In this document: piece by piece, positions 4,010-57,500 of the stretch | How positions within the stretch are numbered: position 1 is the stretch's first letter | How the letters are laid out: each line of letters opens with the position of its first letter | Assembly: GCF_046105845.1 (NCBI RefSeq) | Contig: NZ_CP151004.1 | Strand: one strand, 5' to 3' | Length of the DNA: 64,000 nucleotides | Source: Escherichia coli | GTDB taxonomy: Bacteria > Pseudomonadota > Gammaproteobacteria > Enterobacterales > Enterobacteriaceae | Made by a program: the position numbers and the translations under genes | The notes under the pieces: model-generated | What the model saw: only the letters and a program-made list of their open reading frames with translations | Database searches by the model: none | What the model was told of the DNA's origin: nothing

Positions 4010-7000
4010 ATGAATAGAATCTATCGCGTGATATGGAATTGCACCCTACAGGTATTTCAGGCCTGCTCGGAATTAACTCGCAGGGTAGGTAAAACATCAA
4101 CGGTTAATTTGCGTAAATCCTCTGGACTGACAACGAAATTCAGTAGATTGACGCTGGGTGTTTTGCTGGCACTAAGCGGTTCAGCGTCTGGTGCGAGTCT
4201 GGAAGTTGATAATGATCAGATTATCAATATTGATACTGATGTTGCTTATGATGCCTACCTGGTTGGGTGGTATGGCACTGGAGTGCTTAATATTTTGGCT
4301 GGCGGTAATGCCTCCTTAACCACTATTACTACCAGCGTCATTGGTGGTAATGAGAACTCGAAGGGCACCGTTAATGTTTTGGGTGGCACCTGGCGATTGT
4401 ATGATAGCGGAAATAATGCAAGGCCTTTAAATGTGGGCCAATCCGGAACGGGGATGCTGAATATTAAACAGAAGGGGCACGTTGACGGAGGCTATTTAAG
4501 ATTAGGTACTCAAGCTGTAGGCGTCGGGATGGTTAATGTTGAGGGAGAGGACTCGGTTCTGACGACCGAATTATTCGAAATAGGGAGTTACGGTACAGGC
4601 TCATTAAATATTACGGATAAGGGTTACGTCACGAGTTCAATCGTCGCCATTGTAGGATATCAGGCGAACAGCACTGGTAAGGTTGTCGTTGAAAAGGGTG
4701 GCGAGTGGCTAATAAAAAATAATGATTCCTCAATTGAATTTCAAATTGGTAATCAAGGAACTGGGGAGGCGACTATTCGCGAGGGTGGACTGATTACGGC
4801 TGAAAATACGATTATCGGTGGCAATGCCACCGGTATCGGAACCCTGAATGTGCAGGATCAAGACTCTGTCATCACGGTACGCAGAGTCTATAATGGATAT
4901 TTCGGTAATGGCACAGTCAATATTTCCAATAATGGACTGATTAATAATAAAGAATATTCATTGGTGGGCGTTCAGGACGGGTCCCACGGTGTCGTCAACG
5001 TGACCAATAAAGGGCATTGGAATTTCCTCGGAACGGGCGAAGCTTTCCGCTATATCTATATCGGTGATGCTGGCGACGGTGAACTTAATGTCTCTAGTGA
5101 AGGCAAAGTAGATTCGGGAATTATCACTGCGGGGATGAAAGAAACAGGCACAGGCAACATTACTATTAAGGATAAGAACTCCATTATCACTAATCTCGGA
5201 ACTAATCTTGGTTATGACGGCCACGGCGAAATGAATATCAGTAATGAGGGGCTTGTTATCAGCAACGGAGGAAGCTCACTCGGTTATGGAGAAACCGGCG
5301 TCGGGAAGGTTAGCATCACCACGGGGGGGATGTGGGAGGTCAATAAGAATGTCTATACCACCATTGGTGTTGCGGGCGTCGGAAACCTCAATATCAGCGA
5401 TGGCGGTAAGTTCGTATCGCAAAATATTACTTTTTTGGGCGATAAAGCAAGCGGTATCGGCACACTGAACCTGATGGATGCGACATCATCGTTCGATACT
5501 GTAGGTATCAATGTCGGTAATTTTGGTAGCGGCATCGTAAATGTCAGTAATGGTGCCACCCTTAATTCAACGGGCTATGGATTTATCGGAGGAAATGCCT
5601 CCGGTAAGGGGATAGTTAATATTTCAACGGATAGTCTCTGGAATTTAAAAACGTCATCTACTAACGCCCAATTGTTACAGGTCGGTGTATTAGGCACGGG
5701 TGAACTGAATATTAGCACCGGAGGTATAGTTAAAGCGCGTGATACACAAATAGCTCTCAATGACAAAAGTAAGGGCGACGTGCGGGTGGATGGGCAGAAC
5801 TCTCTTCTTGAAACATTCAATATGAACGTAGGGACGACTGGCACAGGTACGTTAACCCTGACGAATAACGGTACGCTGAATGTCGAAGGTGGAGAAGTTT
5901 ACTTAGGTGTTTTTGCGCCTGCTGTAGGAACGCTAAACATTGGTGCTGCTCACGGTGAGGCGGCGGCAGATGCCGGATTTATCACCAATGCGACGAAAGT
6001 GGAGTTTGGTCTTGGCGAAGGCGTTTTTGTCTTTAATCATACCAATAACAGTGATGCCGGCTACCAGGTCGATATGCTGATTACGGGTGACGATAAAGAC
6101 GGAAAAGTGATGCATGATGCAGGCCATACGGTGTTCAATGCAGGGAATACTTATAGCGGTAAAACGTTGGTCAATGGCGGCCTCCTGACCATTGCGTCAC
6201 ATACGGCAGATGGGGTAACGGGCATGGGTTCGAGTGAAGTAACCATTGCAAACCCCGGTACGCTCGACATTCTCGCATCAACGAACAGTGCAGGAGATTA
6301 CACGCTGACCAATGCGCTCAAAGGCGATGGCTTGATGCGAGTGCAGCTGTCATCCTCCGACAAAATGTTTGGCTTTACCCATGCAACAGGAACTGAATTC
6401 GCCGGTGTTGCCCAACTGAAAGACAGTACCTTCACACTGGAACGCGACAACACCGCTGCGCTTACTCACGCGATGCTTCAGTCTGACAGTGAAAATACCA
6501 CATCGGTAAAAGTGGGAGAGCAATCCATTGGTGGACTAGCCATGAATGGCGGTACGCTCACTTTCGATACGGATATACCTGCTGCGACGCTCGCGGAGGG
6601 ATATATCAGCGTCGATACGCTGGTTGTCGGCGCGGGTGACTACACCTGGAAAGGCCGTAACTATCAGGTAAACGGGACGGGCGACGTGCTTATCGACGTG
6701 CCTAAACCGTGGAATGATCCCATGGCGAATAACCCTCTGACGACGCTCAATTTGCTGGAACACGATGATAGTCATGTCGGCGTTCAACTGGTGAAGGCGC
6801 AAACGGTTATTGGGTCGGGTGGCTCATTAACGTTACGTGATTTACAGGGCGACGAGGTGGAAGCGGACAAAACGTTACATATTGCACAAAACGGGACAGT
6901 GGTCGCCGAGGGTGATTATGGATTCCGCCTCACGACCGCTCCTGGTGATGGTTTGTATGTTAACTATGGGCTGAAAGCGCTGAACATCCATGGTGGGCAA

Positions 7001-18560: not shown

Positions 18561-18632
18561 TTGTGATTTTGACATTGGTCTATGCGCTCCATTCACGAAA
18601 ATTGCGCGGATATTTATTTTGTGAAGGCTATT

Positions 18633-18650
18633 ATCCTACATCTGTAAGAA
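18633..18650. promoter_or_regulatory. EvgA box (ATCCTACA-TC-TGTAAGAA) upstream of ydeP
   Basis: Matches the 18-bp EvgA inverted-repeat consensus TTCYTACA-N2-TGTARGAA; ydeP is a known direct EvgA target. Confidence 0.7.
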
Positions 18651-18892
18651 AATCCGCGCACAATTGAAGCCAGAGTCTTATTTTTTATATTGAAAAATAT
18701 GTTAATTTAAACACTATGAGAGATGATGCTTAATTTATCGTATTTAATCTTTTGTTTAACGATAATAGATTAAAATAGAAAGAGAGTAGTCCCCTACTCT
18801 TATATATCCATGTTGACGATAATCCCTTTGTATATACTGTGCATCATCGCTATTACAAATCCTAATAATTCATTTCCACACAGGATAAGCAG

Positions 18893-21172
18893 ATGAAGAA
18901 AAAAATTGAATCCTACCAGGGAGCTGCCGGTGGTTGGGGTGCTGTTAAATCCGTAGCGAATGCAGTACGTAAGCAGATGGATATACGCCAGGATGTTATT
19001 GCCATGTTTGACATGAATAAGCCAGAGGGCTTTGACTGTCCGGGTTGTGCATGGCCAGATCCTAAGCACAGTGCGTCATTCGACATTTGTGAAAACGGCG
19101 CAAAAGCAATCGCCTGGGAAGTCACGGATAAGCAGGTAAACGCCTCTTTCTTTGCTGAGAATACGGTTCAATCATTACTTACCTGGGGAGACCACGAGCT
19201 CGAGGCTGCGGGGCGTCTCACCCAGCCTTTGAAATATGATGCCGTCAGCGACTGTTACAAGCCATTAAGCTGGCAACAAGCTTTCGACGAAATTGGCGAA
19301 CGCCTTCAAAGCTATAGTGATCCCAATCAGGTTGAATTCTATACTTCGGGCCGCACTTCCAATGAAGCTGCCTTTCTTTATCAGCTTTTTGCCCGTGAAT
19401 ACGGGAGCAATAACTTCCCCGACTGCTCCAACATGTGCCATGAACCGACCAGTGTGGGTTTGGCAGCGAGTATCGGTGTAGGTAAAGGGACCGTGTTGCT
19501 GGAAGACTTTGAGAAATGCGATTTAGTCATTTGCATTGGGCATAACCCTGGTACAAACCACCCTCGCATGTTGACTTCGTTGCGCGCTTTAGTGAAACGG
19601 GGAGCGAAAATGATCGCCATCAATCCTCTACAGGAACGTGGCCTGGAGCGATTTACCGCACCGCAAAACCCGTTTGAAATGCTGACGAACTCTGAGACTC
19701 AGTTGGCCAGTGCCTACTATAACGTGCGCATTGGTGGTGATATGGCGTTGCTCAAGGGGATGATGCGCCTGTTAATTGAGCGCGATGATGCTGCAAGCGC
19801 CGCAGGTCGGCCCTCATTGCTGGATGACGAATTTATTCAAACGCATACCGTCGGCTTTGACGAGCTACGCCGTGACGTGCTCAATTCCGAGTGGAAAGAT
19901 ATCGAACGTATTTCTGGATTAAGTCAGACTCAAATCGCCGAACTGGCTGATGCATATGCCGCTGCCGAACGCACCATTATCTGTTACGGAATGGGGATCA
20001 CTCAGCACGAACATGGTACCCAGAATGTACAGCAACTGGTCAATCTGCTGTTGATGAAAGGTAACATTGGCAAGCCTGGTGCGGGTATCTGCCCACTACG
20101 AGGTCACTCTAATGTACAGGGCGACCGAACCGTCGGTATCACCGAGAAACCGTCTGCAGAGTTTCTGGCTCGCCTGGGTGAGCGCTATGGTTTCACCCCA
20201 CCTCATGCACCTGGACATGCTGCAATTGCCAGCATGCAAGCAATATGTACGGGGCAGGCTCGAGCATTGATCTGCATGGGGGGCAACTTTGCACTGGCAA
20301 TGCCAGATCGGGAAGCGAGCGCTGTACCGTTAACGCAATTAGATTTGGCGGTACACGTAGCCACTAAGCTTAACCGCTCTCATCTGCTGACCGCACGGCA
20401 TAGCTATATTCTGCCGGTTCTTGGGCGTAGCGAGATTGACATGCAAAAAAGCGGTGCGCAGGCGGTAACCGTTGAGGATTCAATGTCGATGATTCATGCC
20501 TCGCGTGGCGTGTTAAAACCCGCCGGTGTAATGCTGAAATCAGAGTGTGCAGTGGTCGCGGGAATCGCGCAGGCAGCACTACCCCAGAGCGTGGTAGCCT
20601 GGGAGTATCTGGTGGAAGATTATGATCGCATTCGCAATGACATTGAAGCTGTGCTGCCAGAGTTCGCCGACTATAACCAGCGCATCCGTCATCCCGGTGG
20701 TTTTCACCTGATAAATGCAGCTGCTGAAAGGCGCTGGATGACGCCGTCAGGTAAGGCTAATTTCATTACCAGTAAAGGGCTGTTAGAAGATCCCTCTTCA
20801 GCGTTTAACAGTAAGCTAGTCATGGCGACAGTACGCAGTCACGATCAGTACAACACGACGATTTATGGTATGGATGATCGCTATCGAGGGGTATTCGGTC
20901 AACGAGATGTGGTCTTTATGAGTGCTAAACAAGCTAAAATTTGCCGTGTAAAAAACGGCGAAAGAGTTAATCTTATTGCGCTTACGCCAGACGGTAAGCG
21001 AAGCTCACGCCGCATGGATAGATTAAAAGTGGTCATTTACCCTATGGCTGACCGCTCACTGGTGACCTATTTTCCAGAATCGAATCACATGCTAACACTT
21101 GATAACCACGATCCATTGAGTGGCATTCCTGGCTATAAAAGTATTCCGGTTGAATTAGAACCATCAAATTAA
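18893..21172 (+). CDS. ydeP: Acid-resistance molybdopterin oxidoreductase YdeP (formate-dehydrogenase-like)
   Basis: 759-aa [31 protein letters not shown]...; matches K-12 YdeP. Confidence 0.95.
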
Positions 21173-21185
21173 TTCGCCTCCTCAT

Positions 21186-21216
21186 TTCTTCTGCTGTCAT
21201 CCGCACAGCAGAAGAA
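21186..21216 (+). terminator. Terminator-like hairpin after ydeP
   Basis: 12-bp stem TTCTTCTGCTGT / ACAGCAGAAGAA with 7-nt loop; weak U tract. Confidence 0.5.
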
Positions 21217-21290
21217 TTCCTCATTGACCATTGTCGCGCAATTTACTCACATGTGCTAAATTAAACTGCTCGTTATAAGATATATACCTC

Positions 21291-21308
21291 CGCCTACAGC
21301 TGTAAGAA
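21291..21308. promoter_or_regulatory. EvgA box (CGCCTACA-GC-TGTAAGAA) upstream of safA-ydeO
   Basis: Second copy of the EvgA inverted-repeat motif; safA-ydeO is a known EvgA-activated operon. Confidence 0.7.
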
Positions 21309-21419
21309 ACTCCGCTCAGTACTGAAGCGCCAGTCCTATTTCCTCTATTCTCCAGCCTGTTATATTAAGCATACTGATTAACGATGCTTAACGTCATTCG
21401 TTTAATAAACATATTTGAA

Positions 21420-21617
21420 ATGCATGCGACCATAGTGAAAAATAAAATCACGCAAAGAGACAACTATAAAGGGATCATGTCTGTAATTGTGGTTGTATTA
21501 TTACTGACCCTTACATTGATAGCCATTTTTTCGGCAATTGATCAGCTGGGTATTTCAGAAATGGGTCGCATTGCAAGGGATCTTACACATTTCATTATCA
21601 ATAGTTTGCAAGACTGA
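21420..21617 (+). CDS. safA: Small membrane connector protein SafA (links EvgS/EvgA to PhoQ/PhoP)
   Basis: 65-aa product MHATIVKNKITQRDNYKGIMSVIVVVLLLTLTLIAIFSAIDQLG...; single TM helix; position before ydeO. Confidence 0.85.
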   Translation: MHATIVKNKITQRDNYKGIMSVIVVVLLLTLTLIAIFSAIDQLGISEMGRIARDLTHFIINSLQD

Positions 21618-21691: not shown

Positions 21692-22453
21692 ATGTCGCTC
21701 GTTTGTTCTGTTATATTTATTCATCATGCCTTCAACGCTAACATTTTAGATAAAGATTACGCCTTCTCTGACGGCGAGATCCTGATGGTAGATAACGCTG
21801 TTCGTACGCATTTTGAACCTTATGAGCGGCATTTCAAAGAAATCGGATTTAATGAAAATACCATTAAAAAATATCTACAATGCACTAACATCCAGACAGT
21901 GACGGTGCCTGTTCCTGCGAAGTTTTTACGTGCTTCAAATGTACCGACTGGATTGCTTAATGAAATGATTGCTTATCTCAACTCGGAAGAACGCAATCAT
22001 CATAATTTTTCAGAACTTTTGCTTTTTTCTTGCCTGTCTATTTTTGCCGCATGCAAAGGTTTCATTACACTATTAACTAACGGTGTGCTATCCGTTTCCG
22101 GGAAAGTGAGAAATATTGTCAACATGAAGCTGGCGCACCCATGGAAGCTGAAAGATATTTGTGACTGCCTGTACATCAGTGAAAGCCTGCTCAAGAAAAA
22201 ACTAAAGCAAGAGCAAACGACATTCTCACAGATTCTTTTAGATGCCAGAATGCAGCACGCAAAAAATTTGATACGCGTAGAAGGTTCTGTTAATAAAATT
22301 GCCGAACAATGTGGTTATGCCAGTACATCTTATTTTATTTATGCGTTCCGCAAACATTTCGGCAACAGTCCGAAGAGAGTTTCTAAGGAGTACCGTTGTC
22401 AAAGGCACACGGGAATAAATACGGGCAACACGATGAATGCTTTAGCTATTTGA
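21692..22453 (+). CDS. ydeO: AraC-family acid-resistance regulator YdeO
   Basis: 253-aa ORF with C-terminal AraC HTH (…YASTSYFIYAFRKHFGNSPKR…); matches K-12 YdeO. Confidence 0.9.
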   Translation: MSLVCSVIFIHHAFNANILDKDYAFSDGEILMVDNAVRTHFEPYERHFKEIGFNENTIKKYLQCTNIQTVTVPVPAKFLRASNVPTGLLNEMIAYLNSEERNHHNFSELLLFSCLSIFAACKGFITLLTNGVLSVSGKVRNIVNMKLAHPWKLKDICDCLYISESLLKKKLKQEQTTFSQILLDARMQHAKNLIRVEGSVNKIAEQCGYASTSYFIYAFRKHFGNSPKRVSKEYRCQRHTGINTGNTMNALAI

Positions 22454-54559: not shown

Positions 54560-57500
54560 TTACGCCTTCTCGATGTTTACTAAGAACGCTTTATATTCCG
54601 GCGTTTGCGAGTTTGCATCACCGACATTAGGCGTCAGAGTGTTAGCGATGTAACCTTTACGCGCGACACCCTCAAAGCCCCAGTGGATTGGAATACCCAC
54701 CGTTTCAACCTGCTGACCGTTTACATTCAGCGGCTTCAGACGGCGCGTTACCACAGCCACCGCGCGGATAAAACCACGCTTGCTGGAGACAGTGACACGA
54801 TCGCCATTATTAATGCCTTTCGCCGCCGCCAGCGTTTCGCTGATTTCCACAAACTGTTCCGGCTGAGCAATTGCGTTGAGCAACGCGTGCTTGGTCCAGG
54901 TGTGGAAGTGCTCGGTCAGACGATAGGTCGTACCCACATACGGGAACTGCTCTTTTTTACCCATCCGCAGCGCGTCTTGTTCATACAGACGAACCACCGG
55001 GTTAGACACCACGTTCGGATGCAGCGGGTTAGTGCCCAGCGGCGTTTCAATCGGCTCGTAGTGTTCCGGGAACGGACCTTCCGCCATTTTGTTGATGGCA
55101 AACAGGCGTCCCATCCCTTCCGGCTGCATGATAAACGGTCCGGTTAGTGTACCTGGCGCGGCATTGCCGAAGTCCGGAATATCGTTACCCGTCCACTTGC
55201 TGCCGTTCCACTGGATCAGCATCCGTTTCGGATCCCACGGTTTACCGTTGATATCCGCCGAAGCACGGTTGTACAGCACGCGACGGTTGAGCGGCCACGC
55301 CCAGGCCCATCCCAGCGTATTCCCCAGACCGGACGGGTCGGAGTTATCGCGGTTAGCCATCTGGTTGCCCTGCTCTGTCCAGCTACCAGTGTAGATCCAG
55401 CAAGAAGATGCGGTTGTACCGTCATCACGCAGATGCGCAAAGCTACTCAGCAACTGACCTTTCTTCGCAATCAGCACGCCATTAGCATCATAGAGATCTT
55501 CCAGCGCATAGCCGTTGTTCTCTTTAGCTACTTCGTCAGATTGCGGTTCGTGCGGCTGCTTGTAGTTCCAGCTCATCTTCATCAGCGGTTCTACGCCTTT
55601 GCCACCTTCGGCCTGGTACAACTCGCGCAGATGATGGTAGATACCCGCCAGAATTTCGCCGTCGTTACGCGCTTCGCCCGGCGCGTCCTGACCTTTCCAG
55701 TGCCACTGCAACCAGCGACCGGAGTTAGCGATAGAACCATCTTCTTCAGCAAAGCAGGTCGAAGGCAGACGGAATACTTCAGTCTGAATAGACGCCGGAT
55801 CGACATCGTTCGACTCGCCGTGGTTCTGCCAGAAGGTTGAGGTTTCAGTCACCAGCGGATCGATAACCACCATGTACTTCAGTTTGCTCAGGCAGCTCAC
55901 CACTTTGTTTTTGTCCGGGAAGGACGCAACCGGGTTAAAGCCCTGGCAGAAATAACCGGTGACTTTGCCTTCGTCCATCATGTTGAAATACTTGATGACG
56001 TCGTAGGTCTGGTCCCACTTCGGCAGCCAGTCGTAGCCCCAGTTGTTTTCTTTCTGCGCGGCATCGCCATAGAAAGATTTCATCAGGCTAACGAAGAACT
56101 TCGGATAGTTGCTCCAGTAGTTCACCTGATCAGCCAGCGTCGCTTTCGGCGTATTCGCTTCCAGATACGACTGCAAATCAACCTGTTTTTCTGACGGCAG
56201 CGTCAGATAACCCGGCAGGCTGGTTGAGAGCAGACCTAAGTCGGTCAGCCCCTGAATGTTGGAGTGACCACGCAATGCGTTCACGCCGCCACCGGCCATA
56301 CCCATGTTACCGAGCAGTAACTGGATCATCGCCATAGTACGGATGTTCTGCGCACCCACGGTGTGCTGCGTCCAGCCCAGCGCGTAAAGGAAGGTGGTTG
56401 TGCGATCCGGTGCGCTGGTGGAGGCCAGCACTTCACACACTTTCAGGAAGTCGGCTTTTGGCGTACCACAGATGTTTTCTACTACGTCCGGCGTGTAGCG
56501 GGAAACGTGCTCTTTCAGCAAGTTCCACACACAGCGCGGATGAGTCAGTGTTTCATCGCGTTTCGCATAGCCGTTTTCATCGAACTGATAGTTCCAGGAC
56601 GATTTATCGTATTGACGTTTTTCAGCGTCGTAGCCGCTGAACAGACCGTCTTCGAAAGCAAAATCATCACGCACCAGCAGACTGGCGTTGGTGTAATGCT
56701 TAACGTATTCGGCGTTGATTTTGTTGTTTTCGATCAGGTAGCGCAAAACGCCAGACAGGAACGTAATGTCCGTACCGGAACGAATAGGTGCGTAAATATC
56801 CGCTACAGAAGCGGTACGCGTAAAACGGGGATCGACAACGATCAAGGTTGCATCGTTGTTGTTTTTCGCTTCCATCGCCCAGCGGAAACCGACGGGATGC
56901 GCTTCAGCAGCGTTACCACCCATCACCATTACGACGTTAGCGTTTTTGATATCCACCCAGTGGTTGGTCATCGCACCGCGACCAAATGTTGGAGCAAGAC
57001 TTGCTACCGTTGGTCCGTGTCAGACGCGCGCCTGGTTGTCTACCGCCAGCATCCCGAGGGAGCGGGCAAATTTTTGAGTCAGCATCCCGGTTTCGTTGCT
57101 GGCACCGGAGGCACACAGCATACCGGTAGAAAGCCAACGGTTTACCGTTACGCCCTGCTCGTTCTTTTCAATAAAGTTAGCGTCACGGTCAGCTTTCATC
57201 AGCTTGGCAATACGGGAGAATGCTTCATCCCAGCTAATGCGCTGCCATTTATCAGAACCTGGCGCACGATATTCCGGGTAGCGCAGACGGTTTTCGCTGT
57301 TGACGTAATCCAGCAAACCGGCCCCTTTCGGGCACAGCGCACCACGGCTTACCGGATGATCCGGGTCACCTTCAATGTGATAAATCGCTTCTCTGGCGTT
57401 TTTCGCGCCATCACCCAGGCTATACATCAATAGCCCGCAACCTACGGAACAGTATGTGCAGGTGTTACGGATCTCTTTCGCGCGTAATAATTTATAGTTT

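Follow-up and report, generated by a model that had tools for sequence, protein, structure and literature searches.

Two EvgA-activated promoters of Escherichia coli, upstream of ydeP and of safA-ydeO, appear to be diverged copies of a single promoter cassette

Two neighbouring transcription units at the ydeQ-ydeP-safA-ydeO locus of Escherichia coli are preceded by a box for the same regulator, which raises the question of how far their promoters resemble each other beyond that box and where the resemblance comes from. EvgA is a NarL/FixJ-type regulator of the acid response, and its box is reportedly an 18-bp inverted repeat with the consensus TTCYTACA-N2-TGTRAGAA. We analysed the locus within a 64-kb stretch of E. 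coli DNA (hereafter the window), in which ydeP, safA and ydeO were identified by RefSeq annotation and by Pfam matches (SafA and AraC-HTH). All features described below lie on the plus strand. The first unit carries ydeP (18893–21172), encoding a 759-aa protein annotated as a putative oxidoreductase. The second comprises safA (21420–21617), annotated as encoding a 65-aa membrane connector protein (Pfam PF17073, E = 2e-46), and, as its second gene, ydeO (21692–22453), which encodes an AraC-family regulator. The first products downstream of the two promoters, YdeP and SafA, are thus non-homologous. A GATGCTTAA / GATTTTTAA polymorphism was also seen in safA.

A sequence-only reading of the window had reported two 18-bp EvgA palindromes, about 240 bp upstream of ydeP and about 110 bp upstream of safA, and both were recovered where it had placed them. 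The ydeP box occupies 18633–18650 (ATCCTACATCTGTAAGAA, read as ATCCTACA-TC-TGTAAGAA) and ends 242 nt before the ydeP ATG at 18893; the safA-ydeO box occupies 21291–21308 (CGCCTACAGCTGTAAGAA, read as CGCCTACA-GC-TGTAAGAA) and ends 111 nt before the safA ATG at 21420. A motif scan gave 1 and 2 mismatches, respectively, to the consensus TTCYTACANNTGTRAGAA, and at up to three mismatches it returned one further match in the window, an unrelated site at 56432. The 64 kb contain exactly two copies of the 16-nt core CCTACANNTGTAAGAA, with no other occurrence even when two mismatches are allowed. The only departures of the boxes from the K-12 alleles are at box position 1 or 2 and within the 2-nt central spacer, and the core CCTAC(A/G)-NN-TGTAAGAA is kept at both loci in 12 of 12 diverse E. 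coli strains. In K-12, the same inverted repeat is found upstream of emrK/evgA, frc, yfdX and yegR. Both boxes lie upstream of, and point toward, genes reported as EvgA-activated: ydeP transcription is activated by EvgA (PMC11210196), the safA-ydeO promoter is bound directly by EvgA (PMC9496106) and EvgA control of these genes is also stated in a 2026 preprint, while EvgA inverted repeats are cited in PMC3720670. The two motifs are already-known sites through which EvgA switches on ydeP and safA-ydeO. What the present analysis adds is the similarity that extends beyond them, on the strength of which the two promoters look like descendants of a single cassette.

The earlier reading had described this similarity as reaching roughly 45 bp beyond the core box; the similarity is real, and its length had been underestimated. 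Positions 18633–18748 and 21291–21406 align without gaps at a fixed offset of 2658 nt and are identical at 76 of 116 positions (the box contributes 15/18, the 27 nt after it 19/27 and the remaining 71 nt 42/71). The first copy holds the box, the spacer, an extended −10 element, the transcription start and the first ~33 nt of the ydeP leader; the second holds the box, the spacer, an extended −10 element, the predicted start and most of the safA 5′ untranslated region, so that the similarity begins at the box and continues to about +33 of the transcript. Upstream of the boxes the copies show no similarity (3–5 matches per 20 nt). Over the 98 nt that follow the box, 61 positions match, compared with 25.2 ± 4.6 at all other positions of the window (best other, 45), and the best ungapped diagonal scores 39, compared with 10.2 ± 1.4 (maximum 15) in 300 dinucleotide shuffles. 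When the box is left out, the K-12 alleles give a local score of 22, compared with 8.9 ± 1.4 (z ~9).

Within the shared segment, each promoter carries an extended −10 element: TG-t-TAATTT at 18700–18708 for ydeP, with TGn and TAATTT kept in 12 of 12 strains, and TG-t-TATATT at 21358–21366 for safA, in register with the first and likewise conserved in 12 strains. The two elements lie at equal distance from their boxes, which bears out the suggestion from sequence alone of a conserved composite promoter architecture. No recognisable −35 hexamer was found at either promoter. On the basis of a published RNA probe for the ydeP leader, designed to cover −178 to +10 counted from the start codon (PMC11210196), we infer that ydeP transcription starts at 18716, 8 nt downstream of the extended −10 element; this gives a leader of ~177–178 nt (18716–18892) and centres the ydeP box at about −74.5. 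The safA start is predicted, by homology only, at about 21373–21374. An alternative sigma-70 core returned by a consensus scan of the ydeP promoter, TTGAAG-16-TATATT (18664–18691), is less likely: strain IAI39 carries a changed −35, and the corresponding stretch at safA is poor. The ydeP leader has a predicted fold with z = −3.0 and is reported not to be bound by CsrA (PMC11210196). No shared RNA element was detected at the 5′ ends: over its first 50 nt, neither transcript folds better than shuffled sequences (z = −0.8 and +0.9).

The sequence-only reading had made its claim hinge on persistence of the extended similarity in other strains, and in all 12 diverse E. coli the two copies remain identical at 66–76 of 116 positions. 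By blastn, the ydeP and safA promoters were found in 5,327 and 5,374, respectively, of 5,426 complete E. coli genomes. The closest non-E. coli relatives of YdeP that we found, in Edwardsiella (84–85% amino acid identity), have a short, unrelated, GC-rich upstream region without the box; the cassette is therefore specific to the E. coli lineage. A peptide-pattern scan recovered no representative of other Escherichia species. EvgAS and SafA are themselves reported to be specific to the E. coli lineage (PMC9496106).

We consider it probable that the two known EvgA-dependent promoters go back to a single ~116-bp cassette, of which they are now diverged copies, with EvgA acting from about −74. The best reading is that they are duplicated, paralogous extended −10 EvgA promoters that selection has kept similar. 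Common descent is what we infer from comparing the sequences, and two copies only do not formally separate it from strong shared constraint. The ancestral cassette would have consisted of the box, a 49-bp spacer, the extended −10 element, the start site and the first ~33 transcribed nucleotides, and its duplication would have wired both adjacent units to one regulator with identical geometry. Phosphorylated EvgA would bind each 18-bp inverted repeat, ~74 bp upstream of the start, and once bound would activate a weak core promoter with an extended −10 (TGn followed by TAATTT or TATATT). Activation from −74 would proceed by recruitment of RNA polymerase in a class-I-like manner, possibly with extra EvgA contacts further downstream. 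Very low basal activity has been reported for the ydeP promoter (PMC4283999).

Such downstream contacts could themselves account for the similarity. As with its Bordetella relative BvgA, whose geometry is described in PMC7250471, EvgA might form further low-affinity dimers, nucleated by the strong upstream inverted repeat and spaced ~21–22 bp apart as far as the −35 region, and these secondary sites would then make up the extended similarity; we regard this as unlikely. A CA dinucleotide at box positions 27–28 (9–10 bp after the box; 18659–18660 at ydeP and 21317–21318 at safA) and a TCYKATT block at positions 44–50 stand in identical register in six EvgA-activated promoters (ydeP, safA, yegR, emrK, frc and yfdX). 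The block reads TCTTATT at ydeP (18676–18682, or −40 to −34) and TCCTATT at safA (21334–21340), and both forms are invariant in 12 strains. The ydeP element, which follows the left half-site at a distance of 42 bp, is similar to TCYTA, the core of the EvgA half-site. Identical columns are more numerous than under a random-register null (P = 0.0001–0.11), and the TCYKATT block gives P = 0.001–0.0002 with four promoters; it is, however, not significant with three, when yegR is omitted. The promoters are moreover not all independent, as ydeP and safA, probably frc and yfdX, and perhaps yegR are related, and this was a post hoc analysis. When secondary EvgA half-sites were sought with a weight matrix derived from 12 half-sites of K-12, nothing downstream of either box scored above 3 bits; the only matches were weak ones upstream, mutually out of register. 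The weaker shared signal of CA and TCYKATT nonetheless hints at a fixed geometry or at secondary EvgA contacts, as with BvgA. A combined version, in which one ancestral EvgA cassette exists in two copies and CA and TCYTATT are secondary EvgA contacts within a BvgA-like array on one helix face reaching the −35 region, we hold to be rather doubtful.

Convergence without common ancestry appears improbable. On this account the two promoters would have come to resemble each other by binding the same proteins, namely EvgA, RNA polymerase and negative regulators common to both, for instance those of YdeO-dependent feedback or PhoP. Positions that match between the copies are indeed over-represented among those that do not vary in E. 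coli (odds ratio 4.1, p = 0.002), a few register-fixed positions are also found in unrelated EvgA promoters, and both promoters are reported to be under YdeO-dependent negative feedback, with safA also repressed by PhoP (PMC11210196; 2026 preprint). However, the similarity runs ungapped over 116 nt, and many of the positions it covers are freely variable within the species. Furthermore, the other EvgA-box promoters (emrK, evgA, frc, yfdX and yegR) share only 21–38 of 98 positions with either copy; therefore, function alone does not demand the similarity between ydeP and safA. A YdeO operator was rejected as an explanation of the shared segment, in which the ATTTCA repeats of the YdeO box were not seen, and neither ydeP nor safA is mentioned among the YdeO targets of PMC4222967. 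Inspection by eye for the PhoP box, (T/G)GTTTA-N5-(T/G)GTTTA, found no convincing repeat in either promoter. On the combined version described above, the shared segment could also hold an operator for the common YdeO-dependent negative feedback.

That the safA box persists as a relic within one ydeP-safA-ydeO operon, without independent promoter function, seems very improbable. One paper does use the wording 'ydeP-safA-ydeO operon' (PMC11052181). Between the two units, 3′ of the ydeP stop codon, lies a hairpin (21186–21216) with a perfect 12-bp stem (TTCTTCTGCTGT / ACAGCAGAAGAA), also found in the divergent strain L004, that lacks a following U-tract, making read-through plausible. Against this, the safA box, TCCTATT and the extended −10 do not vary among 12 strains, amid highly polymorphic intergenic DNA, most genomes being only 80–95% identical over the safA promoter region; in addition to the direct EvgA binding reported there, PsafA-gfp reporters respond to EvgS activation (2026 preprint). 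Chance likeness between AT-rich intergenic regions, or a remnant of a dispersed repeat or mobile element, is scarcely credible: the two regions do share AT-richness (GC content of 17% and 34% over the distal 71 nt), but neither composition-matched nor dinucleotide shuffles ever came near the observed score, blastn placed each promoter at a median of one site per genome in ~5,300–5,400 complete E. coli genomes (a search that would miss copies as diverged as those of ydeP and safA), and the promoter regions showed no terminal repeats, no local repeat family and no Rfam match at E ≤ 1.

Duplication of a whole promoter, if correct, would make this locus a clear natural case of regulon growth by promoter copying, within a two-component system that occurs only in E. 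coli and Shigella. The boxes add nothing to the known EvgA acid-resistance cascade, and the duplication itself is of modest value. The ydeP/safA pair is nevertheless ready-made for working out which positions outside the box are important in an EvgA promoter, and the register-fixed elements in six promoters offer a testable hint as to how EvgA contacts RNA polymerase from −74.

The closest known system is the EvgA regulon of K-12 itself (emrKY, yfdX, frc/yfdWUVE, yegR, ydeP and safA-ydeO), with the same motif, regulator and genes. The boxes are no different from those of the rest of the regulon, whereas the further in-register similarity, over ~98 nt, is limited to the ydeP/safA pair. In their core, the two promoters resemble extended −10 (TGn) sigma-70 promoters, having TG one base upstream of the −10 hexamer (TAATTT or TATATT) and no usable −35, but they are activator-dependent rather than constitutive. 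Their layout, in which a weak core promoter is preceded at a long distance by a high-affinity inverted repeat, is that of the BvgA promoters of Bordetella (Pfha and Pptx; PMC7250471), and EvgS/EvgA were named for their likeness to BvgS/BvgA (PMC9496106). The half-site words are also similar, the BvgA primary site TAAGAAATTTCCTA containing TAAGAA and TTCCTA; in the EvgA box, however, the half-sites stand in the opposite relative order (TTCCTAca-nn-tgTAAGAA). Finally, the pair recalls the 'putative mobile promoters' of Matus-Garcia et al. 2012 (PMC3488235), in which homologous promoter DNA before non-homologous genes rewires a second unit. That survey called for at least 80% identity over at least 50 nt within −150 to −50 of the start codon; the best 50-nt stretch of the ydeP/safA pair reaches 39/50 in the window strain and 40/50 in a K-12-like strain, at or just under this cut-off, and the ydeP copy lies at −260 to −145. 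Compared with the promoters of that survey, the ydeP and safA copies would be older and are more diverged, and they are adjacent, 2.66 kb apart, rather than dispersed.

The two EvgA-type boxes lie among plus-strand genes that begin with the 3′-terminal part of a fimbrial gene (up to 18560), followed by an AT-rich intergenic region of 332 nt, a 759-codon open reading frame (ORF), ydeP (18893–21172), a second intergenic region of 247 nt, and ORFs of 65 codons, safA (21420–21617; Pfam PF17073, E = 2e-46), and 253 codons, ydeO (21692–22453; Pfam AraC-type HTH). Annotation at loci matched by megablast (5,389 of 5,426 complete E. coli genomes), and likewise at the K-12-like locus, names the genes ydeQ, ydeP, safA and ydeO. 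The window strain differs from K-12; in the ydeP promoter it matches E. coli CFSAN061763 at 100% identity and most strains at ~97%. In strain PSS-15, an IS2-family (IS3-like) transposase lies inside the matched locus.

Scanning the 64-kb window with the core CCTACANNTGTAAGAA, allowing up to two mismatches, returned exactly two matches, the plus-strand boxes ATCCTACATCTGTAAGAA (18633–18650; one mismatch to TTCYTACANNTGTRAGAA) before ydeP and CGCCTACAGCTGTAAGAA (21291–21308; two mismatches to TTCYTACANNTGTRAGAA) before safA. They end 242 nt and 111 nt from the respective ATG, in agreement with the sequence-only reading, which had placed them about 240 bp and about 110 bp upstream; neither the boxes nor their function is new. 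In K-12, searching with this motif located boxes in the interval separating emrK from evgA, ahead of frc, ahead of yfdX (two) and ahead of yegR (one). An 8-bp inverted repeat, GCGCGGAT/ATCCGCGC (18604–18611 and 18652–18659; 40 bp between arms), brackets the ydeP box and has no counterpart at the safA box; 11 strains retain the two arms, and the deeply divergent strain L004 carries ATTCGCGC at a different spacing.

The sequence-only reading had also extended the similarity of the two promoters roughly 45 bp beyond the core box. The similarity is real, and that length proved too short: from the boxes to 18748 and 21406 the promoters align without a gap at a fixed offset of 2,658 nt, with 76 of 116 positions identical, and the distal 71 nt past those ~45 bp still match at 42 positions (the top window position; z = 5.7 versus composition-matched shuffles). 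The 98 nt past the box gave 61 in-register matches versus 25.2 ± 4.6 at all other window positions (best other, 45), and, when the two intergenic regions were compared, the best gap-free diagonal scored 39 versus 10.2 ± 1.4 (maximum 15) in 300 dinucleotide shuffles. When the box was left out, gapped local alignment in the K-12-like strain scored 22 versus 8.9 ± 1.4. Upstream of the boxes the in-register alignment showed no similarity (3–5 matches per 20 nt). The other K-12 boxes (emrK side, evgA side, frc, both yfdX and yegR) share just 21–38 of 98 positions in register with either copy, indicating that EvgA activation alone does not require similarity at the ydeP/safA level, and local alignments of these promoters to the two copies reached z ≤ 3.3. 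Among K-12 EvgA-box promoters, the extended similarity is thus specific to the ydeP/safA pair.

Fainter resemblances were seen elsewhere. The K-12 yegR promoter (locus L062, 8305–8431) has ATTTAAACACTA(T)GAGAG in common with the ydeP −10/start region (18705–18722), 5 bp farther from its box, as well as ATCCTATT and GTATTTAAT; its local score (z = 2.4) was reached by 13 of 300 shuffles, and this promoter may represent a third relative of the cassette that has diverged further. The frc and proximal yfdX boxes (locus L001, 15457–15524 and 16451–16518) are both followed by CTCTCTGATT at box positions 41–50, and these promoters, matching at 38 of 98 positions in register, may form a second related pair.

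The reported ydeP leader RNA spans −178 to +10 with the start codon as reference (PMC11210196); because the K-12-like leader contains one additional A downstream relative to the window, its 5′ end maps to the A at 18716. Eight nucleotides upstream lies a plus-strand extended −10 element, TGtTAATTT (18700–18708), and exactly in register with it safA has TGtTATATT (21358–21366, plus strand); both are conserved in 12 of 12 strains (TGT or TGC). No acceptable −35 hexamer was found 16–18 bp before either −10, in keeping with a ydeP promoter whose basal activity is very low and which depends strongly on EvgA (PMC4283999). An alternative core from a consensus scan, TTGAAG-16-TATATT (18664–18691), is less likely, its −35 being changed in IAI39 and its safA equivalent poor. 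With the extended −10 as the core, we infer that the ydeP box is centred at about −74.5; by homology, the safA box is predicted to be centred likewise, with +1 at 21373–21374 and a 5′ UTR of ~47 nt. Since box, extended −10 and start all fall inside the similarity, the shared segment, −83 to about +33, amounts to a complete promoter cassette. Beyond the ydeP stop codon, a perfect 12-bp hairpin (21186–21197/21205–21216) is consistent with two transcription units and, having no U-tract, leaves room for read-through. In L004 (about 6297–6327) the 12-bp stem is kept and the 7-nt loop reads ACGGATG in place of CATCCGC, nearly its reverse complement, as an inversion of the loop would leave it.

The ydeP leader (~178 nt; folded as 18716–18905) is predicted to be structured (minimum free energy −37.1 kcal/mol, z = −3.0), with long-range pairing between its 5′ end, GAGAUGAUGC (18720–18729), and GCAUCAUCGC (18841–18850), ~120 nt downstream, a hairpin at 18783–18800 and a start-codon hairpin (about 18868–18898) that would sequester the AUG together with the GGA before it. 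Both long-range segments are invariant in seven distinct alleles, while the DNA in between varies. As only 1 of 45 predicted pairs is compensatory and the long-range stem is invariant, essentially no covariation supports the fold, which is unproven.

Both promoters were taken from 12 E. coli strains, including the window, K-12-like, O157, O111, IAI39 and UPEC132 strains and L004. In every one the two copies match at 66–76 of 116 positions, so that the similarity is retained in other strains, as the sequence-only reading required. Invariant blocks comprise the box, GTCCTATTTC, CTG(T/C)TATATTAA and ACTGATTAACGAT for safA, and the box core, CAGAGTCTTATTTT, ATG(T/C)TAATTTAAAC and TATGAGAGATGATGCTTA for ydeP. 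Positions identical between copies are enriched among species-invariant ones (40/57 versus 15/41; odds ratio 4.1, p = 0.002). The ydeP–safA intergenic region (21173–21420) is far more variable than neighbouring DNA, with 80–90% identity to the window in 2,682 genomes and 90–95% in 2,169, compared with 95–99% for the whole 3.3-kb locus in most genomes. In UPEC132 (L057, 1617–2864) the annotation gives ydeP as a truncated pseudogene, and the safA cassette is intact. In the window strain an in-frame ATG within GATGCTTAA (21384–21419), inside the leader portion common to ydeP, lengthens the safA ORF by 12 codons to 77 amino acids; seven other sampled strains, K-12-like included, have GATTTTTAA instead, without this ATG.

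The two copies differ at ~35% of positions, exceeding the deepest within-species divergence (12–18% over the first 100 nt), so the duplication is older than the sampled diversification. The nearest non-E. coli YdeP relatives found, in Edwardsiella (three loci; 84–85% amino acid identity to 18893–21169), lie 3′ of a Bax1-I-family gene across a short GC-rich spacer, in which no EvgA box was found. Reports of EvgAS and SafA are confined to E. coli and Shigella (PMC9496106); together, these observations indicate a lineage-specific acquisition of the cassette. A peptide-pattern scan recovered no ydeP from a representative of other Escherichia species, Salmonella or Citrobacter, a patchy distribution that suggests horizontal transfer of ydeP. 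Copies of ydeP 100% identical to the window on L003 (JARKOR010000108.1, 'Candidatus Nanosynbacter' MAG), which has both EvgA boxes, and L042 (USHE01000194.1, 'uncultured bacterium') almost certainly stem from E. coli sequence contaminating the bins.

At mildly acidic pH EvgS phosphorylates EvgA, which activates ydeP, ydeO and gadE (PMC11210196); the safA–ydeO promoter is a direct target (PMC9496106), and EvgA binds inverted repeats of yfdX and yfdW (PMC3720670). PhoP represses PsafA (2026 preprint), and the promoter of YdeO itself is under negative feedback by YdeO, as is ydeP by an indirect route (PMC11210196; 2026 preprint). An EvgA dimer at −74.5 would recruit RNA polymerase to the extended −10 core, either through the alpha C-terminal domain in a class-I-like manner or with the help of further EvgA molecules. 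The latter, a BvgA-like arrangement with additional EvgA downstream of the strong box toward −35, is a lead rather than an established result, drawn from stacking six EvgA-activated promoters by their boxes. CA recurs at box positions 27–28 and TC at 44–45 (6/6 each), ATT at 48–50 (5/6), and −10-like hexamers, read from the stack, at columns ~70–77 (5/6). The register-fixed block (TCTTATT, TCCTATT twice, TCCTCTG and TCTGATT twice; −40 to −34 in ydeP) contains TCYTA, the EvgA half-site core, 42 bp or four helical turns past the left half-site. As the best 7-column block in four promoters it reached P = 0.001–0.0002 versus random registers, and was not significant in three with yegR dropped; all-identical columns exceeded the null in five of six promoter subsets (P = 0.0001–0.03; 0.11 in the other). 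However, a half-site weight matrix found no secondary EvgA site, the stacked promoters are not independent of one another, and the register analysis was post hoc.

Overall, the feature is an ordinary piece of regulation that is already explained; it adds an evolutionary footnote of modest interest and a single mechanistic lead open to testing. No earlier mention of the cassette duplication was found in the literature covered, which did not include the two primary box papers. The duplication is an instance of promoter propagation, a phenomenon already described (PMC3488235), in whose survey the pair would fall at or below the detection threshold (39–40/50) and outside the search window. EvgS/EvgA were named after Bordetella BvgS/BvgA (PMC9496106), and BvgA dimers sit head-to-head at 22-bp steps, starting at a strong upstream site and reaching the −35 region (PMC7250471); the EvgA register pattern resembles this dimer array.
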